64,000 nucleotides of DNA from Calditrichota bacterium (GCA_013150955.1 JAADJD010000062.1:49416-113415); one strand, 5' to 3'. Counted from the stretch's first letter, positions 4,151-63,525 are shown. Numbers and translations are program-made. Notes: generated by a model not told the origin, from the sequence alone.

Positions 4151-4242
4151 GCCACGGGAAAGATGTGGATTTTTTTCCATTCAACGATTATATTTCTTAG
4201 TAAATGGATCAGTGAAACTAAGAGAGGAGATCATAAAAAGAG

Positions 4243-5547: not shown

Positions 5548-6922
5548 GCACGAGGTTGTACTTCGGGCCATTCCACCTGTAAAGGAATTGCTTGACCATC
5601 CCCTTTTCCAACTATTTCCGGTCTCTCGACCCTTTTTAAAACGCATCATTCAGCAGGAAATCGAACGCTTCCGCCAGCAGGTAGTTCAGCAACAGCTGGC
5701 CATCACGCCGGAATCTGTGGCCAGGCGGCTGCAGGAACAGATTACCAATCGGCTTCGTCGACTGGTATCGGCGCAACTCACGCGGGTCATCAACGCCACG
5801 GGTATCATCGCCCACACCAATCTGGGACGGGCCCCACTGGCACCGGCGGCCATCGAGGCCATCCGTCAGCTGGCGGGAGGCTATTGCAACCTGGAATTTC
5901 AGCTGGCCTCTGGAGGTCGCGGCCGCCGTGAATCCAATGTGGAAACCCTGCTCCAGCTGCTGACCGGTGCTGAAGCGGCGCTGGTAGTCAACAACAACGC
6001 GGCCGCGGTTTTGCTGGTCTTGCACGCCCTGGCCCGGCGACGCGAAGTGATTGTATCCCGCGGTGAACTGGTGGAAATCGGGGGCTCCTTTCGCCTGCCA
6101 GAAGTGCTGCAGACCAGTGGTGCCAGGCTGGTAGAAATTGGCACTACCAACAAAACCCGCCTGGATGATTACCGGAAAGCCATTGGTCCCCGCACGGCAG
6201 CCATTTTGAAAGTCCATCCCAGTAATTATCGCGTGGTGGGGTTCACCCAGTCGGTGGCGATCCAGGAACTTTCCCCGCTGTGCCGGAACCACGGCATCCC
6301 ACTGATTTACGATCTGGGCAGCGGAGCCCTGGTCGATCTGCAACAATGGCAACTCCCGGCAGAACCGGTGGCATCCCGGGCGCTGCAGGATGGCGCGGAC
6401 ATCGTCACCTTCAGCGGCGATAAGGTGCTGGGAGGCCCACAGGCCGGAATCATCATCGGCAAGAAGGCGTATCTGGATAAAATTCGCCGGCACCCGTTAA
6501 CCCGCGCCCTCCGCTGCGACAAATTGACCTACGCCGCATTGGAAGCCACCCTGCGATTGTATTTACAGCCGGAATCACTTCCACAACACCTTCCGGTCCT
6601 GCATTTGCTAACCACCCCGGTGGAACACCTGCGCCAACGGGCACAAACCATCGTCGATACGCTAACCACCCGGGCTGTCCAGGCACGCATTGTTCCCTCC
6701 ACGGCACAAATGGGCAGTGGTGCCCTGCCGCTGGAGACCATACCTTCCATTGCCGTGGAACTGACCCCGCGGAAATTCTCCGCTGCCACCATCGCCCGCA
6801 AACTGCGGCAAAACTCGCCGCCCATCATTGGCTACGTGCAGGATGAAAAAGTTTTCCTGGACATGCGCACGGTGGACGCTTCCGAACTGGCCGAGATTAT
6901 CAAAGCCATTAACCGGCTGTAG
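5531..6922 (+). CDS. selA: L-seryl-tRNA(Sec) selenium transferase (selenocysteine synthase)
   Basis: The PLP-lysine motif FSGDKVLGGPQAG is present. The protein is about 460 aa. It overlaps the preceding gene by 17 nt. Confidence 0.85.
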   Translation: MKSRAEHEVVLRAIPPVKELLDHPLFQLFPVSRPFLKRIIQQEIERFRQQVVQQQLAITPESVARRLQEQITNRLRRLVSAQLTRVINATGIIAHTNLGRAPLAPAAIEAIRQLAGGYCNLEFQLASGGRGRRESNVETLLQLLTGAEAALVVNNNAAAVLLVLHALARRREVIVSRGELVEIGGSFRLPEVLQTSGARLVEIGTTNKTRLDDYRKAIGPRTAAILKVHPSNYRVVGFTQSVAIQELSPLCRNHGIPLIYDLGSGALVDLQQWQLPAEPVASRALQDGADIVTFSGDKVLGGPQAGIIIGKKAYLDKIRRHPLTRALRCDKLTYAALEATLRLYLQPESLPQHLPVLHLLTTPVEHLRQRAQTIVDTLTTRAVQARIVPSTAQMGSGALPLETIPSIAVELTPRKFSAATIARKLRQNSPPIIGYVQDEKVFLDMRTVDASELAEIIKAINRL

Positions 6923-7029
6923 ACAATTGGACATACTCCCGGGTTTTTCCTTAGCCCGGCCTTGTCTCTCGATGCGTCCCCGAAGAAAGACCTCCTTATT
7001 TGCACCCGGAAAATGTTCGGCTTACATTT

Positions 7030-7235
7030 TTAACCCGGATTAAGCATAAACAACCTGCTACAGGGGGATTTAATATGCATTAGCCTACGAATTACACGAA
7101 TTAAAACAAATAAAAATACAAAAACACATTGGATGGCAGCCGGATTCAAATTTGTTTCGGGATTTATTCGCGATTTTGAGGGTATGGTTTGGATGCATTT
7201 GCATAATTCTTGGTTTGATGCATCACTTGGGTTAA
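7030..7235 (-). mobile_element. MITE-like TIR repeat element copy A (reverse orientation, with extra internal terminal copy)
   Basis: It starts TTAACCCGGATTAAGCAT and ends CATCACTTGGGTTAA. The core is similar to other copies. It sits between selA and selB. Confidence 0.6.
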
Positions 7236-7389
7236 CTATCCACCGATTCAAAAAAATTTCTTTCAGGTAGCTTTACGGAAACATTGTCTCTCAAAAATTT
7301 ATATTTATTTTTGCTCAATCGCGTCATTCGTGGTCCAAGGCTTGATTTGGGTTTATTTTATTTTAAGACCCGGCAACGAAGGGGTGGGA

Positions 7390-9318
7390 ATGCGGACAGG
7401 AAGACAATACGTCATCGGAACGGCCGGTCACATTGATCACGGAAAAACGGCCCTGGTAAAGGCTCTGACCGGTGTGGATACCGATCGGTTGCCGGAGGAA
7501 AAGGCGCGCGGCATTACCATTGATCTGGGATTTGCCCATTTAAACGATCGCATCACCATCATTGACGTTCCAGGACACGAGCGGTTGATAAAAAATATGG
7601 TGGCCGGCGTCAGCACCATCGATCTGGTGCTGTTTGTGGTGGCCGCCGACGATGGCCTGATGCCACAGACCCATGAACATCTGGAAATCGTTCGTTTATT
7701 AAATATTCCCCGGGGTGTTTTTGCCCTCACCAAAATCGACCTGGTCTCCCCGGAGTGGTGCGAGCTGGTGAAAAGCGAGCTGCAAAACCGCCTGAAAGGA
7801 ACCCCCTTTGAACAGGCACCCATCGTTCCCACCAGTGTGGTGACCGGGGAAGGCATCCAGACCCTGAGAGAAACCCTTTTGCAAATGCTACGAGAAATAC
7901 CGCCGCGAATGAGCCGGGACTATTTTCGAATGCCGGTGGATCGGGTGTTTACCCGCAAAGGATTTGGTACCATTGTAACCGGCACCGTGCTAAGTGGCCA
8001 GCTAACGACGGGCACCTTACTGGAGTTGCAACCTTCCGGGAAGACGGTGCGCGTGCGCGGACTGCAGACGCATGGACGGGACGTGGACTCCGTGGAAACG
8101 GGCGATCGTGCGGCGCTGAATCTGGCCGGCGTTGAGCAACAGGAGGTTAAACGTGGAATGGTGCTCATCACCCCGGACTATGCAGCACCGGCCGAATCTC
8201 TGACCGTCTACCTGCAGGTGCTTTCCGACTCCCCAATCCCCCTGAAAAGTCATCAGCGGATCCGCCTGCACATTCATACCGAAGAAGTCATGGGACGATT
8301 GGTCATCCCCGGCAACCAGGCACTGCCTCCGGGACGTTCCGCTTACATTCAGATCCGTCTGGAAAAGCCCATCCAGGCGTGCTACGGGGATCGGTTCATT
8401 GTGCGTCAGTACTCGCCCCAGGTCACCCTCGGTGGGGGCATGGTGCTCCAGGTCAATCCCCCGCGATTCCGAAAAAAGTGGGAATCCCTTTTTCTGGAAA
8501 CCGCCCGCCAGCTTCATCAGGGCACACCGGAGGAACGTATCCTGGCGTTGTTGAATCCCCTGACCGTGAAGCCGCTCTCCTTCCGGCAACTGCAGGTGGG
8601 GACGGATCTTCCCGCCGGGGAGTTGACCAGGCGGCTTCAGTCCCTCCTCTCCCGGAAGGACATTCACTCCCTTATCCTGGACGGCCACCCCCACTATTTT
8701 TCCCGGTTTCAGGCCCGGGTCATTTTACACGATTTGCAGCGAATCCTGGAAAAATACCATCACGACCACACTCTGCTCCCTGGAATGCCGCGGAAGGAGT
8801 TGCTGGCCGCCATGCCACATCGTTATCACCCGGATTTAATCGCCGCTGTTCTTGATCTGGGAATTCAGGGAAATCACATTCAGGTGGTGGGGAATCGACT
8901 GGCATTGCCAGCGCATGCGACCCGGTCGTCTGCCGACACGGAAGCCTGGCTGCAGCGCTTGCGTAACGCCATCGAATCTGCAGAGTGGCGTCCACAGCCG
9001 ATCGAATCCATTGGCCGGGAACTGGAAATTCCTCGCAAAACATTAAAGACGCTACTAACCCTGCTCATTGAGTCGGGAGAAATCTATCCCGTAAACCACA
9101 CCTATTACCTATCCCGAGATGCATACCAGAAGATGGTGCAACGGGTACGGGACTATTTTCAGAAAAAGGCACACATGCGGGTCAGCGATTTTAAAACGCT
9201 GCTGAACATCACCCGAAAACACGCCATTCCCTTGCTGGAATTTCTGGATGCCCGGGGCATTACCCGACGGGAAGGGGATGTGCGCCTGGCGGGAGACCGG
9301 CTACAGGCCGATCCCTGA
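7390..9318 (+). CDS. selB: selenocysteine-specific translation elongation factor SelB
   Basis: GTAGHIDHGKT is a P-loop, and DxPGH is present (IIDVPGHE). A long C-terminal extension of about 300 aa is consistent with the winged-helix SECIS-binding domains. ATG at 7390 follows GAAGGGGTGGG. Confidence 0.85.
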   Translation: MRTGRQYVIGTAGHIDHGKTALVKALTGVDTDRLPEEKARGITIDLGFAHLNDRITIIDVPGHERLIKNMVAGVSTIDLVLFVVAADDGLMPQTHEHLEIVRLLNIPRGVFALTKIDLVSPEWCELVKSELQNRLKGTPFEQAPIVPTSVVTGEGIQTLRETLLQMLREIPPRMSRDYFRMPVDRVFTRKGFGTIVTGTVLSGQLTTGTLLELQPSGKTVRVRGLQTHGRDVDSVETGDRAALNLAGVEQQEVKRGMVLITPDYAAPAESLTVYLQVLSDSPIPLKSHQRIRLHIHTEEVMGRLVIPGNQALPPGRSAYIQIRLEKPIQACYGDRFIVRQYSPQVTLGGGMVLQVNPPRFRKKWESLFLETARQLHQGTPEERILALLNPLTVKPLSFRQLQVGTDLPAGELTRRLQSLLSRKDIHSLILDGHPHYFSRFQARVILHDLQRILEKYHHDHTLLPGMPRKELLAAMPHRYHPDLIAAVLDLGIQGNHIQVVGNRLALPAHATRSSADTEAWLQRLRNAIESAEWRPQPIESIGRELEIPRKTLKTLLTLLIESGEIYPVNHTYYLSRDAYQKMVQRVRDYFQKKAHMRVSDFKTLLNITRKHAIPLLEFLDARGITRREGDVRLAGDRLQADP

Positions 9319-9446
9319 ATAAAAACCGGCCATTCCTCAATGCGCCCAACGGAAACCGGATTTCACGATCGCTGAAACCGACCGGGCCACCTTCCAATAT
9401 TCCTGCTCTCACTGCATCCCAAAACGGCAGTGGCAGATTCCAGGAT

Positions 9447-10076
9447 CTACTTTTTCTCTTTGGCCTTCTCTTCCTTGATGTGGAACGACTTCACGAATTC
9501 ATCGAAGCTGCTGCGCCAGTGATCCACCGTTTTCTGTGGCCCAACGGCCTTAAAAAACCAGGGGCCGTTCTTGGTTTCGGCAATCGCTGCCAGCATGGCG
9601 TAATCGGGCAATTCCTCCACCGGCCCGCCCATCATCATCATGGGATTTTTCGGCCGAATGTAAGTGCCGGTGACGTACACCAGCGTAACGGGAATGCCAT
9701 TAATGATGCGGTAAGATTTCTGCACGTGATAAAGCGTACTGGTGCTGTCTGGCTGCTTGAATTGCCCATACCAGCGGGTCAGATTGGCTTCTACCGAACC
9801 GCCGGTACCGGGGAAGAAAAAGACGGCCAGAACCGCATCATCCGCCCCTTCGTAACCCGGCCAGCGAAACTGTGCCAGCCGCATCTTGCTGCGGGGTGTT
9901 TCGGACACCCAACCTTTGGGCACCGTGTAGGCCACCTCTCCGTCCGGCAGCACCCGATCTTTCTTCTTCTGAAACACGGCATGGGGGGAAACCGCACCCT
10001 GCTGTCCATGGGCTTCGGGGAATGGAAAAATAAAAAAACTCATCCATAAAAGACCAAACCACAGGTTTCGCAACAT
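9447..10076 (-). CDS. hypothetical secreted protein
   Basis: MLRNLWFGLLWMSFFIFPFPEAHG reads as a signal peptide. A GGGAGA RBS lies 7 nt upstream of ATG 10074-10076. No recognised domain. Confidence 0.5.
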   Translation of the reverse strand: MLRNLWFGLLWMSFFIFPFPEAHGQQGAVSPHAVFQKKKDRVLPDGEVAYTVPKGWVSETPRSKMRLAQFRWPGYEGADDAVLAVFFFPGTGGSVEANLTRWYGQFKQPDSTSTLYHVQKSYRIINGIPVTLVYVTGTYIRPKNPMMMMGGPVEELPDYAMLAAIAETKNGPWFFKAVGPQKTVDHWRSSFDEFVKSFHIKEEKAKEKK

Positions 10077-10297
10077 ATTTTTTCTCCCAGATGGTTTTTT
10101 TATGGTAGGGCCCAAATGGCCACTTTCCTTTTTCTTTTGTCTACTAAATTATACGAACAATTCCATTCCCTCACAATCGGGAAAAATTCTTTATTTCAAT
10201 GAATTCTCTTTTAGTCTCATTTAATAATGAAGGGATTTATATTTGGCATTTGCTACGCCATAACCCATCATTAACTTTTTGTGTAAAGGAGGCGGAT

Positions 10298-11269
10298 ATG
10301 CAGGTACCGGATTGGGAAGACATTCGCCAGGCGGCAAAACGAATCGCGCCTTTTGTGAAGCGAACCCCCGTCTTCACCAGCGAAACACTGAACCGGTTAA
10401 CCGGCGCCCACCTGTTTTTTAAATGCGAAAACTTTCAGAAAGTGGGGGCTTTCAAGTTTCGGGGGGCCTGTAACGCCGTATTTTCATTGAACGATTCCGA
10501 AGCCCGAAAGGGCGTGTGCACGCATTCTTCGGGGAATCACGCCGCGGCCTTATCGCTGGCGGCCCGCCTGCGGGGCATCCCGGCGTATGTGGTAATGCCG
10601 GAAAATTCCCCGCGGGTGAAAGTGGACGCGGTACAACATTATGGTGGACAGATCACCTTTTGTGCCCCCACCCTGACTGCCCGGGAACAAACCCTGCAGA
10701 AAATTCAACAGCAAACCGGAGCGGTGTTCATTCATCCCTACAACAATTTTCTTGTAGTGGCGGGGCAGGGCACCGTGGCGCTGGAATTTCTGGAGGCCAT
10801 CCCTGACCTGGACATCCTGCTGGCACCGGTTGGTGGCGGTGGGTTGATGAGCGGTACCTGTCTGGCCGCTTCCGTGCTGCGGCCGGATATTCAGTTAATC
10901 GGTGCAGAGCCTGCGGCCGCCGATGATGCCTGCCGCTCCCTGCAAACGGGTAAAATTATCCCGCCCGAAAATCCCCGGACCATTGCCGATGGATTGCGCA
11001 CGTCCCTCTGTCCCCTCACCTTCCAGGTGCTCCAGCAGCATCTGGACAGCATTCTGACCGTCAGCGAGGAAGGAATTGTTCAGGCCATGCGCCTGATCTG
11101 GGAACGCATGAAAATTGTGGTGGAACCGTCTGCCGCCGTGCCCTTTGCAGCCGTTCTGGAACACAAAAATCGTTTTCGCAACCGGCGGGTGGGGATCATC
11201 CTGAGCGGAGGGAATGTGGATCTGGACAGGCTGCCCTGGTTTTCCCCGGCACCCGATGCCCGCAATTAA
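10298..11269 (+). CDS. PLP-dependent serine/threonine dehydratase family enzyme (serine-racemase-like)
   Basis: FKFRGACNAV is a PLP-lysine motif, and the SSGNHAAAL and GGGGL glycine-rich loops are present. An AGGAGG RBS precedes ATG 10298. The stop TAA 11267-11269 lies inside the TTAA terminus of the repeat element. Confidence 0.75.
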   Translation: MQVPDWEDIRQAAKRIAPFVKRTPVFTSETLNRLTGAHLFFKCENFQKVGAFKFRGACNAVFSLNDSEARKGVCTHSSGNHAAALSLAARLRGIPAYVVMPENSPRVKVDAVQHYGGQITFCAPTLTAREQTLQKIQQQTGAVFIHPYNNFLVVAGQGTVALEFLEAIPDLDILLAPVGGGGLMSGTCLAASVLRPDIQLIGAEPAAADDACRSLQTGKIIPPENPRTIADGLRTSLCPLTFQVLQQHLDSILTVSEEGIVQAMRLIWERMKIVVEPSAAVPFAAVLEHKNRFRNRRVGIILSGGNVDLDRLPWFSPAPDARN

Positions 11270-11440
11270 CCCAGATTACGTATTAAACCACCAATTGCAC
11301 GAATTAACACAAATTAAAAATAATCAAATACATTGGATCAAATCTGGATTAAAATTTGTTTTGGGGTATATTCGCGATTTTGTGGATATGGTTTGGTTTC
11401 ATTCGCGTGATTCGCGGTTTCATGCATTATCTGGGATTAA
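11266..11440 (-). mobile_element. MITE-like element copy B (reverse orientation, about 175 bp)
   Basis: TTAACCCAGATTACGTATTAAACCACCAATTGCACGAATTAACACAAAT ... TTCATTCGCGTGATTCGCGGTTTCATGCATTATCTGGGATTAA. Confidence 0.65.
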
Positions 11441-11518
11441 TTTTTCTTGCAGGCTGCGGGATTATATTGTAAAATCCAAAATGGAAAAATGATAAAGGTG
11501 TTTGGAGGCAATCAATCC

Positions 11519-12103
11519 ATGTTAAACATAAAAATTACCGATCCCGCACGACGCAAAATCGTTGAGCTGATGCAGCAAATGGAGCAGCCCGTTAAAGGTT
11601 TGCGCATCGTTGCCAATGCGCGTTCTCCCCTGAACGTGGAATACAGCCTGGCTTTTGTGTACGAGGACGAAATTTTTCCCGACGACACGGTTGTGGACAT
11701 TGGCGATTTCGAGGTGTACGTGGATGCGGAAAGCGTCCCTTACATGGATGGCGTGATCCTGGATTTCCTGGACAATCCCATGGGAGGCAACTTCCGAATC
11801 GATGCGCCGCCCCCACCGGCGCCCAAACTGGAAGGCCCCCTGGCAGAACGGCTTCAAAAACTCATTCAGGAGCAGATCAATCCCGCACTGGCTTCCCACG
11901 GTGGATTTGTCCATCTGGTGGACGTTAAGGACAATGTGGCCTACATTGAAATGGGAGGGGGTTGCCAGGGATGCGGGCTGGCCAATGTGACCCTGAAACG
12001 GGGCATTGAAATGATGATCAAACGGAACATTCCAGAAATTAAGGAAGTGCTGGATGTGACCGATCACGCCCGCGGTACCAATCCCTATTACAAACGTACC
12101 TGA
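11519..12103 (+). CDS. nfuA: NfuA-like Fe-S cluster carrier (degenerate A-type domain plus Nfu domain)
   Basis: The C-terminal GGGCQGCGLA is a CxxC Nfu motif. GGAGG lies upstream of ATG 11519. The ORF-track start at 11447 lies inside a repeat element. Confidence 0.7.
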   Translation: MLNIKITDPARRKIVELMQQMEQPVKGLRIVANARSPLNVEYSLAFVYEDEIFPDDTVVDIGDFEVYVDAESVPYMDGVILDFLDNPMGGNFRIDAPPPPAPKLEGPLAERLQKLIQEQINPALASHGGFVHLVDVKDNVAYIEMGGGCQGCGLANVTLKRGIEMMIKRNIPEIKEVLDVTDHARGTNPYYKRT

Positions 12104-12126
12104 AGCCCGGATAATTATCCCCGCGA

Positions 12127-15012
12127 TTACCCCTTCTGTGCGGAACCTTCTGCTTCCTGGCGAATCTCGAAAATTTCTTCCAGATCCTCACGGGTCAATT
12201 GCTTGACAAAACCCGTATCCGAGGTGATGAGTTCCTTGGACAGCTGGCGTTTGGCCTCCTGCAACAGACGGATCTTCTCTTCCACAGAATCTTTAATAAT
12301 GTATTTGTAGACAAAAACGCCCTTGTCCTGCCCAATCCGATGCGCCCGATCGGTGGCCTGTTGTTCCACCGCCGGATTCCACCAGGGATCCAGATGAATC
12401 ACGTAATCGGCAGCCGTCAGGTTCAGTCCCAACCCACCAGCCTTTAACGAGATCAAAAACGCACCGATTTCGGGATTTTCCTGGAAATTGCGAATGTGCT
12501 TGGCCCGATTCCGCACCCGTCCATCCAGATACTCGTACTTCCAGCCTTTCTCATCAAACAACCGCCGCACCAGCGATAAAAAGCGCACAAACTGGGAAAA
12601 GATCAACACCTTATGGCCCCGCCCCAGTATTTCTTCCAGCATATCCTCCAGCAATAGAATTTTCCCGGACTGATACAGATCCATGTCCGGTTTCAAAATG
12701 GCGGGGTGACAGGCAATCTGCCGTAAATAGGTCAACGCCTCGATAATCTTCATCCGCACTTTGTTGATTCCCAGTTCGTCAATCTGGCTAAAAATCTGCT
12801 GGCGGTAAGCCTCCAGCACCTGATTGTAAATGCGGCGCTGCTTCTCGGTCATCTCCACCACCTGGATAATCTCCGAAAGCGGTGGCAATTGCTTTTCCAC
12901 TTCCTCCTTCGTCCGCCGCAGGATAAACGGGTAAATTAATTTGCGCAACGTGTGCAGGGCATGTTCGCGTTCTTCCGGGGGAATTTCAACATATTTTGCG
13001 GTAAACTGCGGCAGCGTGCCCAGAAAACCCGGATTCACAAAATTGAACTGTGCCCACAAATCCTGCAGCGCATTCTCGATGGGCGTACCGGTTAGCGCCA
13101 GCCGATGCAGAGACTTCAACTTTTGCACGGCGCGGTAGGTTTTGGTCTGGGGATTCTTAATCTTTTGCGATTCGTCCAGAATCACATACTCAAACGTGCG
13201 TTCCGCAAGATGCTTCTGATCCTGCAAAACCACTCCGTAGCTACAAAGAATCACGTCATACTGATCGAACTTTTCCAGCATCCTGACCCGATCGACCCGA
13301 TTTCCGTAATAGCGCAAGACGCGCATTCCGGGTGCAAATTTCTGGAATTCTTCCCACCAGTTGAAAATCAGCGTTAACGGCACCACGATCAATGCCGGGT
13401 GTCGTAACCGGCCTTCTTCTTTCAGTTTGGTTAACAGGGCAATGACCTGAACCGTCTTGCCCAGCCCCATGTCATCGGCCAGGATGCCTCCAAACCGGAA
13501 TTCGTGCAGGAAATGCAGCCAATCCAGGCCTGCCTTCTGATACTCGCGCAACTGCCCTCGAAAACCGCCGGGCACCGAAACGGGCTCGATCTCCCGAAAC
13601 TCCCGATAGCGTTGAATTAACTGCCGGCTATCCTCATCAAAATTGATGTCCCCCAGGATTTCCTCCAGTTCCTGCAGCACCATCACGCCGGCATTGGGCA
13701 GGCGGATTTTCTCATGGCCATCGCGGATGTCCAGTATTTCGGCCACCCGCAGGATCTTTTCTCGCACTTCCTGAGGCACGTAAATGTGGGAACCATCCGA
13801 CAACTTGAGATAAGGCTTCCCCGATTTCAACTGCCGTACCAGCTGGGGGATGGCCACCGAGCGATTGCCCACTCGAATCTGAAAGCGCAGTTCCAGCCAG
13901 TCCTCCAGCGCCTGTACATCCACCCGAATGCGCGGCGTTCCCCGATGCACGCGGTAGTAATGCAGCCGATCCAGCCCGTAAATTTTAAACCCAAATGCTT
14001 CCAGCCGGGGAATTTCCAGGCGCATCCAGTCCAGGGGATGGTAATCGGCGGCAATGTGCCAGTAACCGCTGCGGTAGATCAACCCATGTTCTTCCAGGAA
14101 GTTCCGCGCCCGATCCTCTTCTTCGCGATCCCGGCGGATGATGAATAAATGACCGTTGTCGTTGGTTAAACTTTTTTCCGCCGGGGGATTGGCCGGGAAT
14201 TCGAAACGGCTGTAACGGAAAAACACTTCGATTTGCAGATGCTGATTTTCTTCCGTGAACACAATCGCTTTTTCTTCCAGTGGCAGTTCGTAAGCCTTTA
14301 AATGATCCGCCAGATTCTCCCAATCCAGGATGGGCAACAGATGGGACAGGTAAATCCGGATGAAGTCATCCAGTTCACTCTTGGGAATTTCAAATTTCTC
14401 GTATACCCGGAAATAATTATTCCAGAATATGGCCGGTAAATGCGATTCAATCTTATACAGCACCTTCTGGTACAGAATGTAGATGGGATTCGAGGTCAGC
14501 ACGGTTACCGGATGTTCCAGTTCCAGTGCATCGTCCTTGAATTTCAAGGTGGGTTGCAGATAGAACCCGGTTTTACCCTGTTTCAATCGCAACACAATGC
14601 TGGCCGTCTCCGGATGAAAGGTAACCGGTTCTGGATTCCGCTGCACCATGTCCTTGATCAGCACGCTGCTATTCCGCAACCAGTCCAGCAAAAATCCCAC
14701 CGGCTGAGTGTAAGTGAACACCTGGCGTCCGTCGTTACCAACGCTGGTTTGCAAATAAATCAGGCAATTCAGTTCATCTTCGGTGATGTTCACCTTGCTG
14801 CTATCAATAACCGCAAGCGAAAGGCGCACTTCCCTGCCGGGTGAACCATCCAGCCGGGTGTAGTTGGCATAAGGTAAAATCGTCCAGTTGGTAGCGCGCA
14901 ATTCAATCAAAAAATAAGGCTCGTACACTCCGGCTTTGGACTCAAAAGACTTGGGTTGCGGCGACTTTTCGATTAACCCTACCAGTTGTTCAATTTTGCC
15001 TCGCCAGCTCAT
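12127..15012 (-). CDS. SNF2-family helicase with N-terminal bacterial SNF2-associated region (YwqA-like)
   Basis: Motif I is DDMGLGKT, motif II is DESQKIKN, and motif VI is QATDRAHRIGQ. About 470 aa of non-helicase N-terminus precede the helicase. Confidence 0.85.
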   Translation of the reverse strand: MSWRGKIEQLVGLIEKSPQPKSFESKAGVYEPYFLIELRATNWTILPYANYTRLDGSPGREVRLSLAVIDSSKVNITEDELNCLIYLQTSVGNDGRQVFTYTQPVGFLLDWLRNSSVLIKDMVQRNPEPVTFHPETASIVLRLKQGKTGFYLQPTLKFKDDALELEHPVTVLTSNPIYILYQKVLYKIESHLPAIFWNNYFRVYEKFEIPKSELDDFIRIYLSHLLPILDWENLADHLKAYELPLEEKAIVFTEENQHLQIEVFFRYSRFEFPANPPAEKSLTNDNGHLFIIRRDREEEDRARNFLEEHGLIYRSGYWHIAADYHPLDWMRLEIPRLEAFGFKIYGLDRLHYYRVHRGTPRIRVDVQALEDWLELRFQIRVGNRSVAIPQLVRQLKSGKPYLKLSDGSHIYVPQEVREKILRVAEILDIRDGHEKIRLPNAGVMVLQELEEILGDINFDEDSRQLIQRYREFREIEPVSVPGGFRGQLREYQKAGLDWLHFLHEFRFGGILADDMGLGKTVQVIALLTKLKEEGRLRHPALIVVPLTLIFNWWEEFQKFAPGMRVLRYYGNRVDRVRMLEKFDQYDVILCSYGVVLQDQKHLAERTFEYVILDESQKIKNPQTKTYRAVQKLKSLHRLALTGTPIENALQDLWAQFNFVNPGFLGTLPQFTAKYVEIPPEEREHALHTLRKLIYPFILRRTKEEVEKQLPPLSEIIQVVEMTEKQRRIYNQVLEAYRQQIFSQIDELGINKVRMKIIEALTYLRQIACHPAILKPDMDLYQSGKILLLEDMLEEILGRGHKVLIFSQFVRFLSLVRRLFDEKGWKYEYLDGRVRNRAKHIRNFQENPEIGAFLISLKAGGLGLNLTAADYVIHLDPWWNPAVEQQATDRAHRIGQDKGVFVYKYIIKDSVEEKIRLLQEAKRQLSKELITSDTGFVKQLTREDLEEIFEIRQEAEGSAQKG

Positions 15013-22440: not shown

Positions 22441-22844
22441 CCCGATTTAAAATGAACGTTTCAACCCACTTCTGACTACCCAACACTTTCCCTTCGCCGG
22501 CTCAAGCCCCCCAACAACCCTGTGGGTTGATCTTCAGCGCTGGAGACACGTTTCGACGTTTGATGTCTCTCCAAATCAAAAAAATATAATAAATGGGCCT
22601 ACCCAAATCAAAAGCCAAAACCAGAACCCTGTGGACGCGATTCTATCCCCGCACAAATTTAGCCAAAAATACCCATCAAATGCCACCGGTGAATGCAATG
22701 CCAACATTAATTTTGGAAAGGAAAATCGTTAATCCATGAGGAAAGGGATAGCATTGAAGATCGGGTATCTGTCGGGTTCGGAACGATCCCGTATCGGCAA
22801 GTTCTTGTTCCCCCATTTTTCTTTGATGAAAACTTGCCCCGTAT

Positions 22845-23062
22845 CAGGTATGAAACCACGAATCACACGGATAAAACCAAAAATATCCACAAAATCACGA
22901 ATAAACACCGAAACAAAATTCCGTCCAGATCTAATCCAATGTACTTTTTTATTTTATTTGTGTTCATTCGCGTCATTCGTGGTTCTAATGCATAATCTGG
23001 GTTTATTATTTTTATTCGTTTTAATTCGTGTCATTCGTAGGCTATTGCATAATCTGGGTTAA
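22845..23062 (+). mobile_element. MITE-like element copy C (forward, duplicated right terminus)
   Basis: GAAACCACGAATCACACGGAT ... TTCATTCGCGTCATTCGTGGTTCTAATGCATAATCTGGGTTTA plus a second copy ...CGTAGGCTATTGCATAATCTGGGTTAA. Confidence 0.6.
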
Positions 23063-23242
23063 AAAACGCTTCTCTGAAGAGGCCATTCACGTCGCATTAC
23101 TGGATCAGGAAGAATATGGGGATAAAAACGGGATTCTGGTGATCACGGCAGAGCGGTTTCTTGAGAGATTCATTTAATTACCGGGGAAAATCATTATACT
23201 TTTTCCAGGGCTAAAAGCGCTGGATCCGATGCTCCATCGCGA

Positions 23243-25107: not shown

Positions 25108-25276
25108 TTTTAACCTAAATAAAGCATCAACCACGAATCACGCGAATGAATCCAAAAAAATTTCAACAAAATAACGAATTAACCCTGGAACACATCCAGT
25201 TATAAAAAAATTTATTTTGTTATTGTAATTCAGGTGAATTCGTGTGATTCGTGGGCAATGCACAATCTGGATTAAA
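25108..25276 (+). mobile_element. MITE-like element copy D (forward)
   Basis: TTTTAACCTAAATAAAGCATCAACCACGAATCACGCGAATGAA ... GTGAATTCGTGTGATTCGTGGGCAATGCACAATCTGGATTAA. Confidence 0.6.
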
Positions 25277-26848: not shown

Positions 26849-27019
26849 TGCAAACTCCTTTCCGTTTAAAACAAAGTTTTTTGATGGACAAAACCGCGCC
26901 GGGTTACAGAAAAATCTGTAGTAATGGCGAAAATGTTCAGGGCTTCCTTTCGGGTGGATTTCCCCTTGCTTTCCTTCGAGCCCTCTCGTATACTTTCGGG
27001 GACAAAATGCGAGGGAATC

Positions 27020-27862
27020 ATGACCACGGCACTTTCCGATACCCAGATCGAAAAACTCCGCCAGACCGTCTGGAAGGCTCTGAAAAATGCCGGAATCTCT
27101 CCACACCCTCCTGAAGGAAAGTTCTGGCAACCAATCATTGTTCAGGAAAAAAATCGTCGCCAGCGGTTTCTTTCTGCATCCCAACCGGATGCTCGCACGC
27201 TGGCCACATTCATTGATCACACCCTGCTTAAACCCGAGGCCGGGAAATCCCGCGTCGAACAGCTTTGTCAGGAAGCGCAAAAGCACGGATTCGCCGCCGT
27301 ATGTGTGAACCCGGTTTACGTTCCCCTTGCTTCCCGGCTGTTACAAGATTCACCACCAAAGATTTGCAGCGTGGTGGGCTTTCCCTTAGGTGCCAATCTT
27401 TCGTCCATTAAAGCGCAGGAGGCCCGGCAGGCCATTTCCGATGGTGCAACGGAAATTGACATGGTGCTACACGTGGGAGCCCTGAAAGACCGGGATCTGG
27501 TGGCTGTGTATCGGGATATTCGGTCGGTGGTGGAGGTGTGTGATGAGCACGAGGTTCTCTGCAAGGTCATCCTCGAAACGGCGCTCCTGGAAGATGAGGA
27601 AAAAGTTCTGGCCTGTGAATTGTCCGCACTGGCCGGGGCGGCCTTTGTGAAAACATCCACGGGATTTGGCCCTGGCGGGGCAACCGAACAGGACGTGGCA
27701 TTGATGGAGCGCGTGGTGGCGCCCTACCGCATGGGAGTGAAGGCATCCGGTGGCATCCGCAGCTGGCAGCAGGCGGTAAACATGATCCATGCCGGCGCCA
27801 TACGGATTGGAGCCAGTGCCAGCGTGAATATCGTGACCGAAGTACAGATCAAACCCAAATAA
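27020..27862 (+). CDS. deoC: deoxyribose-phosphate aldolase
   Basis: DeoC signatures FIDHTLLKPEA, AAVCVNP, KVILET and VKASGGIRS are present. ATG 27020 follows GAGGGAA. There is roughly a 60 aa N-terminal extension relative to typical DeoC. The stop lies in a repeat-element terminus. Confidence 0.75.
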   Translation: MTTALSDTQIEKLRQTVWKALKNAGISPHPPEGKFWQPIIVQEKNRRQRFLSASQPDARTLATFIDHTLLKPEAGKSRVEQLCQEAQKHGFAAVCVNPVYVPLASRLLQDSPPKICSVVGFPLGANLSSIKAQEARQAISDGATEIDMVLHVGALKDRDLVAVYRDIRSVVEVCDEHEVLCKVILETALLEDEEKVLACELSALAGAAFVKTSTGFGPGGATEQDVALMERVVAPYRMGVKASGGIRSWQQAVNMIHAGAIRIGASASVNIVTEVQIKPK

Positions 27863-27963
27863 AGCGTTAAACCACGAATCACGCGAATGAATTCGAATCA
27901 TATCAACAAAATAGCGAATATATTCGGGATAAACATCTTCATCCAGATAGAATCAAGTACATT
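27857..27963 (+). mobile_element. MITE-like element partial copy E1 (left half; its terminus overlaps the deoC stop codon)
   Basis: AACCCAAATAAAGCGTTAAACCACGAATCACGCGAATGAATTCG... It lacks the right TIR and abuts copy E2. Confidence 0.5.
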
Positions 27964-28215
27964 TTAACCCAGATAATGCATTAAACCGCGAATCACGCGA
28001 ATGAACATAAAAAATATCAATAAAATCACTAATAAACCTCGGAGCGAATTTTCATACAGATCTAAATCAATGGATTTTATTGTTTTTATTTGTGTTAATT
28101 CGTGCAATTCGTGGTTTAAAGCATAATTTGGGTTTATAAAGCATAATTTGGGTTTAATATTTTTATTTGGTGTGAATTCGTGTAATTCGTAGGCTATTGC
28201 ATAATTTGGGATTAA
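27964..28215 (+). mobile_element. MITE-like element copy E2 (forward, full length with duplicated right terminus)
   Basis: TTTTAACCCAGATAATGCATTAAACCGCGAATCACGCGAATGAAC ... TTAATTCGTGCAATTCGTGGTTTAAAGCATAATTTGGGTTTA ... GTGAATTCGTGTAATTCGTAGGCTATTGCATAATTTGGGATTAA. Confidence 0.65.
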
Positions 28216-28238
28216 AAAAGGCGGCTTTGCAGCCGCCT
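28212..28238 (-). terminator. rho-independent terminator (GGCGGCT-TTGC-AGCCGCC plus T-run on minus strand)
   Basis: A GC-rich 7 bp stem at 28220-28237 is followed by T7 on the minus strand, immediately downstream of the 28269-28586 gene. Confidence 0.6.
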
Positions 28239-28268
28239 TCAATATATGGGGACGTGTTTGCGGAAAAA

Positions 28269-33400: not shown

Positions 33401-33444
33401 ATCGATCACCCCGCCCATCCCGTTCGATTCATCGCAAATTAGGT

Positions 33445-33633
33445 TTTAGCTCATGAATGACACGAATTAACTCAAATACAGCGTTAAACCGCAAATCACG
33501 CGAATAAATTCGAAAAAAATCAACAAAATAGCGAATATGTCCGGGAAAACATTTTCATCCAGATAGAATCCAGTGCGTATTTTTATTGGTGTACATTCGT
33601 GTCATTCATAGGCGAATGTATAATCCGGGTTGA
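33445..33633 (+). mobile_element. MITE-like element copy F (forward)
   Basis: ...CAGCGTTAAACCGCAAATCACGCGAATAAATTCG ... GTACATTCGTGTCATTCATAGGCGAATGTATAATCCGGGTTGA. Confidence 0.55.
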
Positions 33634-33757
33634 TCATTCCCTCTTGAGCCAATCACAGGCAATTGGCATTGATTTTGAAATATTCATTCGGCGGAAATTG
33701 AAATCCCTGCAAAATTGACACATCAGGAAAAATTTAAAACCGAAAGGGGGTGACAAA

Positions 33758-34510: not shown

Positions 34511-34673
34511 TTAAACCCAGAATATGCATTAAACCGCAGATCACGCGAACGAATCCAAAAAATCTCAACAAAATAATGAATAAACCCCGGAACCTATTTT
34601 CATCCGGTTATTTTGTCAATTTTGTTCATGTGAATTCGTGTCATCCGTGGTTTACGTAAAATCTGGATTGAAT
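34511..34673 (+). mobile_element. MITE-like element copy G (forward)
   Basis: TTAAACCCAGAATATGCATTAAACCGCAGATCACGCGAACGAATCC ... GTGAATTCGTGTCATCCGTGGTTTACGTAAAATCTGGATTGAA. Confidence 0.6.
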
Positions 34674-36325: not shown

Positions 36326-36550
36326 GTTTTAATCCCTAATGATGCATTAGACCGCGAATCACACGAATGAACCTTAAAATATCTACAAAATCACGAATAA
36401 CTCCCGAAACAAAACTTCACACGGATATAATCCAATGTACTTTATTATTCTTATTTGTGTTCATTCGTGTAATTCGTGGTTCTAATGCATAATCTGGGTT
36501 TATTTGTGTTCATTCGTGTCATTCGTAGGCTAATGCATAATCTGGGTTAA
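36326..36550 (+). mobile_element. MITE-like element copy H (forward, duplicated right terminus)
   Basis: TTTTAATCCCTAATGATGCATTAGACCGCGAATCACACGAATGAACC ... TTCATTCGTGTAATTCGTGGTTCTAATGCATAATCTGGGTTTA plus TTCATTCGTGTCATTCGTAGGCTAATGCATAATCTGGGTTAA. Confidence 0.65.
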
Positions 36551-36595: not shown

Positions 36596-37486
36596 TCATG
36601 GATTCATTCCCCTGGGTAAGGCCAGTTTGAGTTTATTGGCCAGCACCTCTATTTCCAATCGTCGCCCTTCCAGGTGGGGATCGCCGTCCGTGTGAATGTA
36701 ACCGGGATCTGCGCGTTCGACCACCACGGATTTGACCCGGTAAATCTCCATGGCATCCACTTCGTGGATGGTTCCCGTAAACAATCGGTGCAAATTGATA
36801 ACCGTGCGCCACAAAGGCAGGGGCGAAAGGATGCACAAATCCAGGAATCCGTCATCGGGAATGGCCTGGGGGGCAATGACCGCACCGTTACCGTACTGGG
36901 GCGCATTGGCCACCGAGAGCAGAAGGGGATGGCGTTCGCAACGGCGCCCATCAAAAAACAATTCCACCGGACGAGGCCGGTAACGAAAATATTCCCGTAC
37001 CCCCACAATGAAATAGGGTAACGGCCCTCGCATGCCGAACCGCTCAAAATTTGCGCTAATGACCGCATCCAGTCCCATTCCCGCCACATTCACAAAAAAA
37101 TGCGAATTGATCCGTCCCACATCTATCCAGCGATAATCCACCTGCAACAATCCTTCAATGGCCTTTTTCTGATTCAACGGAATGTGAAAATTGCGGGCGA
37201 ATCCGTTTCCCGATCCCGCCGGGACCACCCCCAGGGCCGTATCCGTATTCAGCAGACCGCGGGCCACTTCATTGATGGTGCCATCACCACCCACGGCCAC
37301 CACGATCCGGGCTCCCTGTCGGGCCCCCTCCCTTGCCAGTTTCACTCCGTGTCCCTGATACCGGGTCTTCTGGATCTGATAGTCCACCGACGCTTTCGAA
37401 AAAATCTCATGGATCCAGGCGATTAACTTTTCGGGCTTGCGATTGATCCCTGAAACGGGATTGACAACAAAGAGGATATGGCTCAT
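36596..37486 (-). CDS. diacylglycerol-kinase catalytic-domain lipid kinase (YegS/DagK family)
   Basis: GGDGT is present (VAVGGDGTINEV). Length and architecture fit this family. Confidence 0.75.
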   Translation of the reverse strand: MSHILFVVNPVSGINRKPEKLIAWIHEIFSKASVDYQIQKTRYQGHGVKLAREGARQGARIVVAVGGDGTINEVARGLLNTDTALGVVPAGSGNGFARNFHIPLNQKKAIEGLLQVDYRWIDVGRINSHFFVNVAGMGLDAVISANFERFGMRGPLPYFIVGVREYFRYRPRPVELFFDGRRCERHPLLLSVANAPQYGNGAVIAPQAIPDDGFLDLCILSPLPLWRTVINLHRLFTGTIHEVDAMEIYRVKSVVVERADPGYIHTDGDPHLEGRRLEIEVLANKLKLALPRGMNP

Positions 37487-38496
37487 AAATGTTCTTCCGT
37501 TTTTACCATCCGCTCCCGAAATTCAGCGTCCACTTCTTGAAGATACAAGTCTACGATCTTCCGGGCAACTGACGAAACATCCGCGGGATGCTCCAGGGTG
37601 AACCAGCGAATGTCCGGTTCCGCGCGGAACCAGGTGTACTGGCGTTTGGCATACCGACGCGTGTTCTGCTTCACCCGTTCCACGCAGGTATACAAATCGA
37701 TTTTTTCTTCCAGGAAATCAATGACTTCCTTGTAGCCTACGGTGTTCAGGGCATTCAATTTGGGGGAATATCCCATGGCCAGCAAACGCCGGACTTCCTC
37801 CACCAGTCCCTGATCGAACATCCACTCCACGCGGGCATTGATTTGTTCGTACAGGGCCTGTCGTTCCATGGTGAGACCGAATTTAACGCCCACGAATGGC
37901 GCGGGATCTTTTTGTGTGCGACGCACCTCCGAAGCCGGTCGCCCCGCGAGGTAAGTAATTTCCAGCGCCCGAAGGACTCGCTTTACATTGTGGGGATGAA
38001 TCCCGGCAGCGGTTTCAGGATCCCGCCTCTGCAATTCCCGATACAGGGCTTCCTCACCCTCTTCCTGTACCCGCTGCAACAATTGCTGGCGCAACTGGTC
38101 ATCCCGGTAATCCTTCCCCAGAAATCCCTCCAGCAACGCCCGAATGTATAATCCGGAGCCACCCACCACCAGCGGCACCCGATTGCGAGACAGGATTTGT
38201 AAAACCACCTTTCGCGCATCTCTGGCAAATTGACCGGCACTGTATTCCTGATCCGGATTCAATATGTCGATGAAATGATGGGGGATCTTCCGACGGACTT
38301 CGACCGGGGGTTTATCGGTACCGATATCCATGTAACGGTAAATCTGGCGAGAATCGGCAGAAATGATTTCCACTGGCAAGCGACGGGCAATCTCCAGCGA
38401 AACCCGCGTTTTTCCCACACCCGTCGGGCCAACCAGAACCAGAATTCTTGGTAAACGTGGGGTGGATTGCCGTATGTTGGAATCGTTCGTGGTCAT
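37483..38496 (-). CDS. miaA: tRNA dimethylallyltransferase
   Basis: GPTGVGKT is a P-loop, and ISADSRQIYRYMDIGTDKP is present. Confidence 0.9.
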   Translation of the reverse strand: MTTNDSNIRQSTPRLPRILVLVGPTGVGKTRVSLEIARRLPVEIISADSRQIYRYMDIGTDKPPVEVRRKIPHHFIDILNPDQEYSAGQFARDARKVVLQILSRNRVPLVVGGSGLYIRALLEGFLGKDYRDDQLRQQLLQRVQEEGEEALYRELQRRDPETAAGIHPHNVKRVLRALEITYLAGRPASEVRRTQKDPAPFVGVKFGLTMERQALYEQINARVEWMFDQGLVEEVRRLLAMGYSPKLNALNTVGYKEVIDFLEEKIDLYTCVERVKQNTRRYAKRQYTWFRAEPDIRWFTLEHPADVSSVARKIVDLYLQEVDAEFRERMVKTEEHL

Positions 38497-38571: not shown

Positions 38572-38744
38572 TTAACCCCAATAATACATTAAACCGCGAA
38601 TCGCGCGAATGAAACCAAATCATATCCACAAAATTTCGAGTAAACCCTGAAACAAATTTTCATCCCGATATAATCAATGGGCTCTATTATTTTTTGTGTT
38701 CATTCGTGTCATTCATGGTCTAAAGCATAATCCGAGTTTAACCC
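38572..38744 (+). mobile_element. MITE-like element copy I (forward)
   Basis: TTTTAACCCCAATAATACATTAAACCGCGAATCGCGCGAATGAAACC ... TTCATTCGTGTCATTCATGGTCTAAAGCATAATCCGAGTTTAACCC. Confidence 0.6.
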
Positions 38745-38915: not shown

Positions 38916-40712
38916 TTATTTGATCCGTTTAAACTTTTTATCCAGCTCTTCCAGGGTAAGATTGACAATCACCGGGCGGCCATGGGGACAGAAAAAGGGT
39001 TCCCGGGTGGCAAATAGCTGATCCACCAGGGCGTTCATTGCTTCCAGGCTTAATTTCTCGCCGGACTTGATGGCATTCTTACAGGCAAAAGCCGCGGCGA
39101 TCTTTTCGTGCGGCTGATAATTTTTGTCCTCATTTTCCCGGTAATAGTCCAAAATCTCCAGCAAAATTTTCCCCTCGTAGCCCACTTTCACATCCCCGGG
39201 AATGGCTTCGATTAAAATCGTTCGACCGCTGAGTTCGGTAATGGCAAACCCAATTTTCTCCAGCCACTCTTTCACTTCCGAGAATATCAAATAATCCTCC
39301 AGAGACAATTCCAGCGTTTGTGGAAATAGCAGCTGTTGCGAAGGCACCGATTGTTTCTTTTCCAGCGCATCCAGAATGCGTTCGTAAAGAATGCGTTCAT
39401 GCGCCACATGTTGATCGATAATGACCAGGCCGCTCTTGATCTGAGAAAAAATGTAGCGATTGTGCACCTGCCAGAGATTGGCCTGAACACCAGCCTGATC
39501 TTCCACCTCCACCTCTGACCGGGTAAAGGGTAGGAGGGACGGGCCGGACTCGGTGGTTTCCGGAACGGTGTAGCTTAATGTCAGCTGGGCGTCGGATTCA
39601 ACCGGAGACGATTGTCCACGAATGGGACGATTTACCGGCGGGCGATATCGCCGCATGGTCTGAAAATGCCGCTGAATTTCCTTCTTCTGCGGATCGCCCC
39701 CTGTCATGTCAAAATGGGGCACAATCTTTTGATCCTGAATGGCCTTCCTTACCGAAGACAGAAACAGGTGATACACCACCCGCTCGTTAGCGAAGCGCAC
39801 CTCCATTTTGGTGGGATGCACGTTCACATCGACCAGATGCGGCGGTATGTGCAGGAACAGGATGAACTGGGGATACCGGGAACGTTCAATCAAATTGCCA
39901 TAGCCCTGAAATACCGCGTGTGCCAGATTTCGGTTGATGATCGCCCGTCGATTCAGAAAGATGAATTGATTCTCGGTATTGCCCCGGGTGTGGTCGGGTT
40001 TGCACACGTAACCATCCAGACGAATGTCGTGGACTTCTTCGTTAATATAAACCAATCCCTGATAAAATTTTTCGCCAAAGACCTGGGTAATGCGTTGATC
40101 GATCTGGGTGCCTGGCAAATTGAAGACCTCTTCGCCGTTGTGAATCACCTCGAAATGTACCTCCGGATAGGCCAGAAAGAAGCGCTTAAGCACTTTCAAA
40201 ATGTGGTTAAATTCCGTGTTATTGGCTTTTAGAAAACTGCGCCGCGCCGGGGTGTTGTAAAACAAATTTTTCACCGTAATGGTTGTTCCCCGGTGCATGG
40301 CTTCCTGGCCTCGAAAAACAATCCGCCCTCCTTCCAGCCGCAACACTGTTCCCGCGCCGCTGGACTCTGTGCAGGTCTTCAGTTCCAGCCGGGATACCGA
40401 AGCGATGCTGGGCAGGGCTTCCCCGCGGAATCCCAGCGTGGCAATGCGATCCAGATCCTGGATGCTCTGTATCTTACTGGTGGCATGCCGTTCAAAGGCC
40501 AGCTCTGCATCCTTCTCATCCATTCCACACCCATTGTCGATCACCTGAATCAACTCCTTACCCGCCTGAGAAATAACGATGGTTAGCCGGGTGGCGCCCG
40601 CATCCAGCGAATTCTCCACCAGCTCTTTTACCACCGATGCCGGACGGTCAACAACCTCTCCTGCAGCAATTTTATTGGCAATGTTGGCGGGTAAAACACG
40701 AATTCGAGCCAT
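38916..40712 (-). CDS. mutL: DNA mismatch repair protein MutL
   Basis: The GHKL ATPase N-terminus carries the ELVENSLDAG, DNGCGM and GFRGEAL motifs. ATG 40710-40712 was chosen (MARIRVLP). Confidence 0.9.
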   Translation of the reverse strand: MARIRVLPANIANKIAAGEVVDRPASVVKELVENSLDAGATRLTIVISQAGKELIQVIDNGCGMDEKDAELAFERHATSKIQSIQDLDRIATLGFRGEALPSIASVSRLELKTCTESSGAGTVLRLEGGRIVFRGQEAMHRGTTITVKNLFYNTPARRSFLKANNTEFNHILKVLKRFFLAYPEVHFEVIHNGEEVFNLPGTQIDQRITQVFGEKFYQGLVYINEEVHDIRLDGYVCKPDHTRGNTENQFIFLNRRAIINRNLAHAVFQGYGNLIERSRYPQFILFLHIPPHLVDVNVHPTKMEVRFANERVVYHLFLSSVRKAIQDQKIVPHFDMTGGDPQKKEIQRHFQTMRRYRPPVNRPIRGQSSPVESDAQLTLSYTVPETTESGPSLLPFTRSEVEVEDQAGVQANLWQVHNRYIFSQIKSGLVIIDQHVAHERILYERILDALEKKQSVPSQQLLFPQTLELSLEDYLIFSEVKEWLEKIGFAITELSGRTILIEAIPGDVKVGYEGKILLEILDYYRENEDKNYQPHEKIAAAFACKNAIKSGEKLSLEAMNALVDQLFATREPFFCPHGRPVIVNLTLEELDKKFKRIK

Positions 40713-40794
40713 TCGAAGCTTGTCTTTCCTGATTTTCTCGTAAACAAAAAAATATAACCAACCCACTACAGGGTTTCAACTGCTTTCTGGATAT

Positions 40795-41067
40795 TTAACC
40801 CAGATTAGCTTTAGACCACAAATTGCACGAATTAACACAAATAAAAATAATAAATTACATTAGACTGCGTCTGAATGAAAATTGGTTTCCGGGTTTATCC
40901 CCGATTATACATTAGCCTACGAATGACACGAATTAACACGAACAAAATAATAAAATCCGTTTGATCATATTCGGATAAAAAATGTGCTCCAGGATTTAAT
41001 CACTATTTTGTTGGTATTTTTAGGATTCATTCGCGTGATTTGTGGTTTACTGTATGATTTGGGTTAA
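40795..41067 (-). mobile_element. MITE-like element copy J (reverse orientation, compound, about 270 bp)
   Basis: TTAACCCAGATTAGCTTTAGACCACAAATTGCACGAATTAACACAAAT ... ATTAGCCTACGAATGACACGAATTAACACGAAC ... TTCATTCGCGTGATTTGTGGTTTACTGTATGATTTGGGTTAA. Confidence 0.6.
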
Positions 41068-55432: not shown

Positions 55433-55524
55433 GAAATGAACAATCCCTTCCTGCGTCCCGGTGCAGGAAGGGATTCACCCATCCCAAAGTTTTCCCGATT
55501 CGCCCCATTAATCATCGGCTATCC

Positions 55525-55652
55525 AATAAACCCTCAACAAGTTTCCATCCAAGATATAATCTTTTTATTTGTGTTCATTCGTGTTATTCGTGGTCTCATG
55601 GATAAATCGCATTGTGTCGCGCTCATCGTGCTCAAAACAGAATCCAGATTAA
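55525..55652 (+). mobile_element. MITE-like element partial copy K (right half only)
   Basis: AATAAACCCTCAACAAGTTTCCATCCAAGATATAATCTTTTTATTTGTGTTCATTCGTGTTATTCGTGGTCTCATGGATAAATCGC ... CAGATTAA. Confidence 0.45.
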
Positions 55653-63211: not shown

Positions 63212-63360
63212 CAATGTGGACTTTTCCCCGTTGCATTAAGTGTTTAAGCATGTAACGACTCGAATTACCCTGAATACACAACGCTTAAGTAAAGATGTTC
63301 ACGCAGATAAAACGAACCGCGATTTGCAAAAATTCCTCTGAAACCATTCGATTTGAAGCC

Positions 63361-63525
63361 AAGTAATGCATTGAACCGCGAATCACGCGAATGAACACAA
63401 AAAATATCAATTAAAATCACGAATAAACCTCGAAGTGAATTTTCATACAGATCTAATCCAATGGATTTTATTAATTGGTATTAATCCGTGCAATTCGTGG
63501 TCTAACGCAGAATTTCGGCTAAATG
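63361..63525 (+). mobile_element. MITE-like element copy L (forward, diverged right terminus)
   Basis: AAGTAATGCATTGAACCGCGAATCACGCGAATGAACAC ... ATTAATCCGTGCAATTCGTGGTCTAACGCAGAATTTCGGCTAA. Confidence 0.55.

Follow-up and report, generated by a model that had tools for sequence, protein, structure and literature searches.

The DNA analysed here, a 64-kb window of a Calditrichota MAG, carries a dispersed family of short repeats, two copies of which adjoin the 3' ends of genes: copy B follows a dehydratase gene and copy E1 follows deoC (Table 1). Repeat finding, together with an nhmmer profile built from 11 copies and run on the window, revealed 12 loci with ~10 full-length copies plus solo arms, confirming that the family named in the original prediction is real. 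All 12 loci are intergenic, and their density is about one per 5 kb.

Table 1. Genes, repeat loci, target-site duplications, and recurrences of the subterminal module. Positions are those of the window unless a contig is named.
Feature	Position	Strand	Basis and remarks
Locus A, complex of nested/partial copies	7034..7351	.	nhmmer profile; inserted at TTTAA; second empty site in L001
PLP-dependent threonine/serine (beta-hydroxyaspartate-type) dehydratase	10298..11269	+	NCBIfam; identical to annotated P0001
Left target-site duplication ATTAA	11265..11269	.	last two bases of Asn codon and stop; empty-site comparison
MITE copy B, full length, 166 bp, CCC...GGG	11270..11435	-	nhmmer E=1.6e-50; reverse to family profile; absent in syntenic L001/L002
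Right target-site duplication ATTAA	11436..11440	.	empty-site comparison
Copy C and extra right arm	22833..23064	+	nhmmer profile
Copy D	25114..25271	+	nhmmer profile; flanks TTTAA / TTAAA
deoC (deoxyribose-phosphate aldolase)	27020..27862	+	TIGR00126, 264 bits; identical to annotated P0121
MITE copy E1, left two-thirds only (profile positions 6-119)	27854..27965	+	left junction TCAAA/CCC, duplication not intact
MITE copy E2, full length	27968..28132	+	TTTAA on left
Extra right arm, TAGGC type, locus E	28153..28210	+	followed by ATTAA 28211-28215 and conserved hairpin AAAAAAGGCGGCTTTGCAGCCGCC
Copy F	33426..33635	+	nhmmer profile; sits in TTAA of another arm's fragment
Copy G	34516..34667	+	nhmmer profile; flanks TTAAA / TTGAA
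Copy H and extra right arm	36334..36546	+	nhmmer profile; outer flanks TTAAT / TTAAT
Copy I	38576..38736	+	nhmmer profile; flanks TTTAA / TTTAA
Partial copy J1 and full copy J2	40799..41063	-	nhmmer profile; flanks TTTAT / TTAAT
Partial copy K	55523..55607	+	nhmmer profile
Copy L, degenerate ends	63358..63518	+	nhmmer profile
Recurrences of the subterminal module	L007 776-808, 1745-2085, 4876; L009 3366-3587; L011 4951-5077; L008 5222-5251; L034 2700-2760		

From CCC to GGG, full copies span 152-166 bp (~165 bp), and each of them has imperfect terminal inverted repeats of ~43 nt, because of which the copies are predicted to fold into long hairpins (z=-3.6 for copy B). Their G+C content is 29-37%, compared with 51% for the window, and pairwise identity among them is 64-86%. 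There is no conserved open frame through the element, any frame being open in only 2-3 of 10 copies. Two 92-aa ORFs that run through copies (11214-11492, plus strand; 27964-28242, minus strand) and have in common the peptide NP(D/N)Y(V/A)LNH(Q/E)LHELTQIK are artefacts: their frame is by accident open in 2 of 10 copies, and a gene caller could mistake them for genes. Small and non-coding, with terminal inverted repeats, a target duplication visible against an empty site, and multiple dispersed copies, the family has the features of MITEs. Copies F, E2, and J are nested in TTAA sites of other copies, and the variant terminus CCYAAATAMAGC of E1 was also found at D and F, as had been predicted. 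Searches of the window, copy B, and related loci against Rfam, at gathering and permissive thresholds, gave no family match, and MITE copies are absent from the related sequences L001-L006 (~45 kb in total).

Several copies are more elaborate. Loci C (22838-23058), H (36334-36546), and E (27968-28210) have a common layout, in which a full copy is followed by TTTAT, a short interior piece, and an additional TAGGC-type right arm; at H, TTAAT stands at both outer ends, implying that full copy and extra arm moved as one unit. The right terminus of E2, including its flank, forms a perfect 20-bp tandem duplication of TAAAGCATAATTTGGGTTTA (28117-28136 and 28137-28156), after which comes TTTAA. Two further copies, J and I, are located 27-75 nt upstream of the starts of minus-strand genes (38916..40766 and 37483..38496); outward promoters are known in IS1380-family elements.

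The dehydratase ORF (10199..11269, with the annotated start at 10298) ends ...CGC AAT TAA. Its stop codon at 11267-11269 falls, as the original prediction stated, in the first TTAA of copy B (11266-11269, within ATTAA at 11265-11269), and the element starts with CCC at 11270. A relative with 82% amino acid identity, sampled twice as L001 (ENA) and L002 (JGI) and syntenic over window positions 3941-12387, has an empty spacer between the dehydratase gene and nfuA, reading ...CCCTGCA-ATTAA-TTTTTCTTGCAGG, where the window reads ...CCCGCA-ATTAA-(CCCAG...CTGGG)-ATTAA-TTTTTCTTGCAGG, with TTTTTC after the right ATTAA as in the relative. Since the empty site has one ATTAA and the window two, copy B is an insertion with a duplicated target. 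The left duplication restores AAT TAA and thus leaves the protein unchanged: the relative's dehydratase P0002 (...CN) and that of the window (...RN) end at the same residue, both being 323 aa long. Both of these comparisons came out as predicted, the element-free relative carrying a single (A)TTAA that holds the stop codon, and they support a precise insertion on the stop codon with an unaltered C terminus.

Just 3' of the insertion point, the block TTTTTCTTGCAGGCTGCRGGATTATATTGTAAAATCC (window 11441-11475; L001 6973-7007) hardly differs between the window and the relative of 82% identity, and copy B sits exactly between this block and the dehydratase stop. The block probably holds a promoter or regulatory hairpin of nfuA.

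To read the flanks, we took the element as strictly CCC...GGG, because similarity between independent copies of an autonomous IS, described below, ends exactly there. Identical 5-mers then flank B (ATTAA), I (TTTAA), H at its outer ends (TTAAT), and E2 (TTTAA, after the 20-bp tandem duplication); the flanking 5-mers of A, G, and J2 match at four of five positions, and those of D are TTTAA and TTAAA. The fifth base varies between copies and agrees within a copy (p ~0.01-0.05 with permuted right flanks), which is why a 5-bp duplication is preferred: the target is best read as an AT-rich pentamer usually containing TTAA. Alternatively, the duplication is possibly a 4-bp TTAA with ragged ends. By our reading, exact TTAA abuts ~14 of the 22 MITE termini, and several termini adjoin TTTAT or TTGAA. 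A preference for the TTAA tetranucleotide, as proposed originally, was therefore close, in that TTAA is frequent, but the flanks are better described by an AT-rich duplication of 5 bp that includes TTAA.

A second empty site is found at locus A, where L001 has ACATTTTTAA-GA once, with one TTTAA, and the window has ACATTTTTAA followed by CCCGG... at 7034. The right flank of this locus (7352-7366) reads TTTAT-TTTAT-TTTAA before homology to the empty site resumes, and this threefold target pentamer points to slippage, or to more than one event, at the same site. The more distant relatives L004-L006 also lack the element, but have spacers that diverged too far to yield exact empty sites at C, D, and F.

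The ends of the MITE connect it to a known transposon family. A metagenome scan with the terminal 24-mer of the MITE returned one contig, L013, on which positions 1461-2864 form an IS of 1404 bp that is bounded by perfect inverted repeats of 17 bp, CCCAGATTATGCATTAG, and encodes a single ORF of 437 aa. This ORF reaches 271.7 bits with NCBIfam NF033539 transpos_IS1380 (cut-off 180) and 172 bits with Pfam PF13701, and it has 30% identity to the ISEcp1 transposase. The 17-mer CCCAGATTATGCATTAG is matched at 17/17 positions by three MITE arms and at 12-16/17 by the others. Because these 17-nt ends are identical to those of a transposase-encoding IS1380-family IS, the MITE is a derivative of the IS1380 family. 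Moreover, the ISEcp1 repeats, which we read from plasmid pC15-1a (CCTAGATTCTACGT / CCTAAATTCCACGT), have CCYARATT in common with the MITE ends. According to ISfinder, IS1380-family ends start with CC and the duplication is 4-5 bp; the MITE runs from CCC to GGG and has identical 5-mers at four copies. IS1247 of this family makes 5-bp duplications (PMC3281130). Alternative right ends are in use by ISEcp1 and ISPme1 (PMC9330008), a behaviour that would fit the additional right arm seen in the units of C, H, and E.

Relatives of the L013 IS are very common in metagenomes, on low-GC contigs and in part in MAGs labelled Cytophagales or Bacteroidetes. Copies of 1405 bp in other metagenomes and MAGs have the same ends, similarity between independent copies stops at CCC and GGG, and the preceding base varies between them (a/t). 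The flanks of these autonomous copies are AT-rich and not clean repeats (TTTAA/ATAAA, ATTAA/ATAAT, some TTTAT), probably because metagenome assembly makes chimeras of the flanks of a multi-copy IS or because some copies moved with an alternative right end, and the 5-bp length is accordingly read from the MITE copies alone. A tblastn search with the ISEcp1 transposase found nothing in the window or the related loci, so that no IS1380 transposase gene was located within these 64 kb, and the subterminal ACGAAT repeats of the MITE are absent from the autonomous IS. On L013 itself, an IS256-family transposase gene (146-1369, 406 bits) adjoins the IS1380-family element in an IS-rich region.

The second gene end differs from the first. 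The deoC ORF (26924..27862, with the annotated start at 27020) ends ...GTA CAG ATC AAA CCC AAA TAA and reads, as predicted, into the left terminus of E1, the CCC at 27854-27856 being the first three bases of the element. The stop at 27860-27862 thus corresponds to element positions 7-9 (family consensus CCC AGA TAA TGC), and the junction, TCAAA followed by CCC, is without TTAA. Hence the claim that a stop-bearing TTAA was hit at both genes holds for the dehydratase, where the empty site is seen, but is not supported in that form for deoC, where the stop is an in-frame TAA inside the terminal repeat of the element. Because stop and last codons lie in the element, the present C terminus of DeoC is chimeric, with at least Pro-Lys and the stop encoded by E1. 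The protein ends ...IVTEVQIKPK; its closest orthologue P0122 (80% identity, on L003, from the same sample as L001) ends ...IITEATTGNGNATTSYT and the next, P0123, ends ...IVTGAPTKGADY. Contrary to a shared end point, these tails are 9 and 4 residues longer and unrelated in sequence, and across orthologues the tail varies from 0 to ~15 residues.

Two histories may account for this end. In one, the insertion hit ...AAT TAA, after which decay of the left-hand TAA to AAA lengthened the ORF by Lys-Pro-Lys. This course is possible: AAA at 27851-27853 occupies the position of the duplicated TAA and is in frame with the present stop. The left flank TCAAA nonetheless differs from the right-hand ATTAA at three of five positions, so that three changes in five bases are needed. 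If it is true, the ancestral gene would have ended ...GTA CAG AAT TAA directly before the AAAAAGGCGG hairpin (...CAG AAT TAA, then AAAAGGCGG). In the other history, to which we give somewhat less than an even chance, the native 3' end was lost by a deletion beside an element inserted downstream, and the codons and stop contributed by the element repaired the gene by accident. L003 is syntenic with the window through a small convergent gene and cytochrome c peroxidase, and DNA homology to it ends at window position 27841 (ACCGAAG) and restarts at 28214, at a hairpin (AAAAAAGGCGG...CCGCC) common to the convergent genes; ~66 nt of L003, comprising ten codons, the stop, and 25 nt of spacer, are without counterpart in the window. 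The left duplication is not intact, and E1 is itself truncated with other copies piled on it, which also favours a deletion. Against this, a relative of only 80% identity is a weak guide to a spacer, a short ancestral tail is plausible given tails of 0 to ~15 residues, and the present stop has the frame that a stop in the duplication would have, for which the chance is one in three. The reading frame favours stop decay over deletion fusion; the hypervariable tail length means that orthologues do not separate the two.

At the other end of deoC, a mechanically called 615-aa ORF (25439-27286, minus strand) overlaps the start region by ~360 nt. By eye it has the look of a metallo-beta-lactamase-fold plus rhodanese protein, and its true start probably lies much further downstream.

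A stricter view would make the family a TTAA-specific, piggyBac-like element that landed in a stop-containing TTAA at both genes and left both proteins unchanged. The single TTAA over the stop in the dehydratase empty site, the many termini abutting exact TTAA, and the in-frame AAA of deoC, which makes a decayed stop conceivable, are all compatible with it. We consider it unlikely. The deoC junction has its stop 7-9 nt inside the element and orthologue tails that are longer and unrelated; the fifth duplication base matches within copies while differing between them; and flanks of the autonomous IS include ATAAA, ATAAT, and TTTAT, all without TTAA. Where a piggyBac-like element would show an exact TTAA duplication at every insertion, we found ATTAA, TTTAA, and TTAAT.

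One part of the MITE has a wider distribution than its ends. Its subterminal module, AACC-RCGAAT-SAC-RCGAAT-GAA, consists of CGAAT-type repeats at ~10-bp spacing. When one genome per species was scanned with the 22-mer AACCRCGAATCACGCGAATGAA from this module, at least five loci matched, and among the matches listed the 22-mer is exact in Kiritimatiellota, Verrucomicrobiota, two Planctomycetota, and one Acidobacteriota genome; a related CGAAT-type array occurs in a viral contig. At these loci the motif opens hairpin repeats of CGAAT-type units, in most cases just after (T)TAA. They have neither the IS1380 17-mer nor the MITE interior, only the subterminal module being shared. The motif strings had no full-text literature match and the cross-phylum hairpins no Rfam family, and BLAST of the MITE and of the Geothrix hairpin against plasmids gave chance AT-rich matches only, or none. 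In Planctomicrobium, a nested pair of such hairpins combines two types of unit, CGAAT and CGGAA. The module might represent a widespread undescribed mobile hairpin family, or a conserved protein-binding module, captured by the Calditrichota MITE between IS1380 ends, though we regard this whole reading as rather doubtful.

This sharing of AACCRCGAATCACGCGAATGAA with hairpin repeats of four other phyla and a viral contig, the long hairpins, the strictly intergenic placement, and the high density could also describe structured modules maintained by the host at gene ends (REP/REPIN-like units, terminators, or RNA elements) that are not transposons. Such an identity is very improbable: two loci show presence or absence with a duplicated target, copies are nested in each other's TTAA sites, three arms end in the very 17 nt that bound a transposase-encoding IS, there is no Rfam match, and copies are 64-86% identical. 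The target duplication and IS ends argue against REP/REPIN, a type in which a RAYT gene accompanies short palindromic units that share a 5' tetranucleotide, and by inspection the MITE arms are not self-palindromic. A TA-duplicating MITE of IS630/Tc1-mariner type, of which Correia and RUP are examples, would have ACCC...GGGT as its ends and prefer a T-TA-A context. The sequences at B, J, and I formally allow such an element, but it is barely credible, as similarity among autonomous IS copies ends at CCC/GGG with a varying preceding base (a/t), the matched transposase belongs to IS1380 and not IS630, and copies with TTAAT/CCC or GGG/ATTAA junctions need a 5-bp duplication.

Thus, the repeats very probably are an AT-rich, non-coding MITE family derived from, or trans-mobilised by, an IS1380-family DDE transposase, with AT-rich pentamer targets and with both gene-end cases included. 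The transposase would recognise the terminal CCCAGATWATGCATTAG and insert the element into AT-rich pentamers, usually with TTAA, generating a 5-bp (possibly 4-bp) direct duplication, the transposition itself being deduced from the copies. Insertions inside genes would be purged and, TAA being the commonest stop here, a notable share of the surviving targets would overlap stop codons. At the dehydratase gene, the element entered ...AAT TAA, as the empty site shows, its left duplication remaking the Asn codon and the stop. At deoC, the ORF continues through the duplication position and the first six element bases (AAA CCC AAA) into the element's own in-frame TAA, an arrangement that may have arisen by decay of the left-duplication TAA to AAA or by a deletion fusing gene to element. 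The terminal repeat CCCAGATAATGCATTAA carries TAA in two of three frames, so an ORF that loses its stop beside an element ends within a few codons.

Given the target preference, stop-codon overlap does not exceed chance. With a crude gene set, TAA is the stop of 21 of 47 genes and is preceded by T in 9 of the 47, and, by the same comparison, 38 other intergenic TTAA sites lie outside elements, so that a stop codon coincides with ~15-20% of the TTAA sites at which an insertion is tolerated. For 12 loci, one certain and one possible stop hit is the chance expectation (one to two), and the overlap is an expected by-product of that preference and of selection against intragenic insertions.

Compared with known systems, the family resembles IS1380-family members (ISEcp1, IS1247, ISPme1) in its CC-start ends (MITE CCCAGATT versus ISEcp1 CCTAGATT / CCTAAATT), short 4-5 bp duplication, AT-rich targets, and alternative right ends. 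Unlike these IS, the window elements are ~165 bp long and non-coding, with inverted repeats of ~43 nt instead of 14-17, and they have a subterminal ACGAAT-N3-CACGAAT module that autonomous members do not. Similarity to eukaryotic piggyBac elements consists of TTAA in the target, 5'-CCC...GGG-3' ends, and a transposase superfamily for which IS1380 serves as the prokaryotic outgroup (PMC10813416), and this likeness runs through the prokaryotic IS1380 family. In contrast to piggyBac, which duplicates exactly TTAA, the duplication here is best read as 5 bp, with TTAA frequent and not obligatory, and the transposase match is to IS1380 (PF13701) and not to the piggyBac domain.

In Coxiella, all affected functional genes with a QMITE carry the insertion at the 3' end (PMC5896051). 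QMITE1/2 are likewise short, hairpin-forming, non-autonomous, high-copy elements whose 3'-end insertions supply C-terminal residues and stops; they differ in parent IS family and target, and in the present family the protein is unchanged in one case of the two. Neisseria Correia elements, which duplicate TA, and Rickettsia RPEs, which insert in frame inside genes, are also bacterial MITEs that remodel gene 3' ends. An RPE-like in-frame tolerance was rejected for the present family, as it has no conserved open reading frame through the element.

The repeats thus constitute a new family of IS1380-derived elements and reveal no new mechanism. For annotation, the DeoC of this MAG ends in residues encoded by an element, and gene callers may extend or truncate ORFs at such repeats. 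For the biology of these genomes, an abundant IS1380-derived MITE family is now documented in Calditrichota. The matched empty site shows that a transposon with a TTAA-containing target can land exactly on a TAA stop codon and leave the protein intact, and the same MITE can rewrite a C terminus, because its inverted repeat has TAA in two of three frames.
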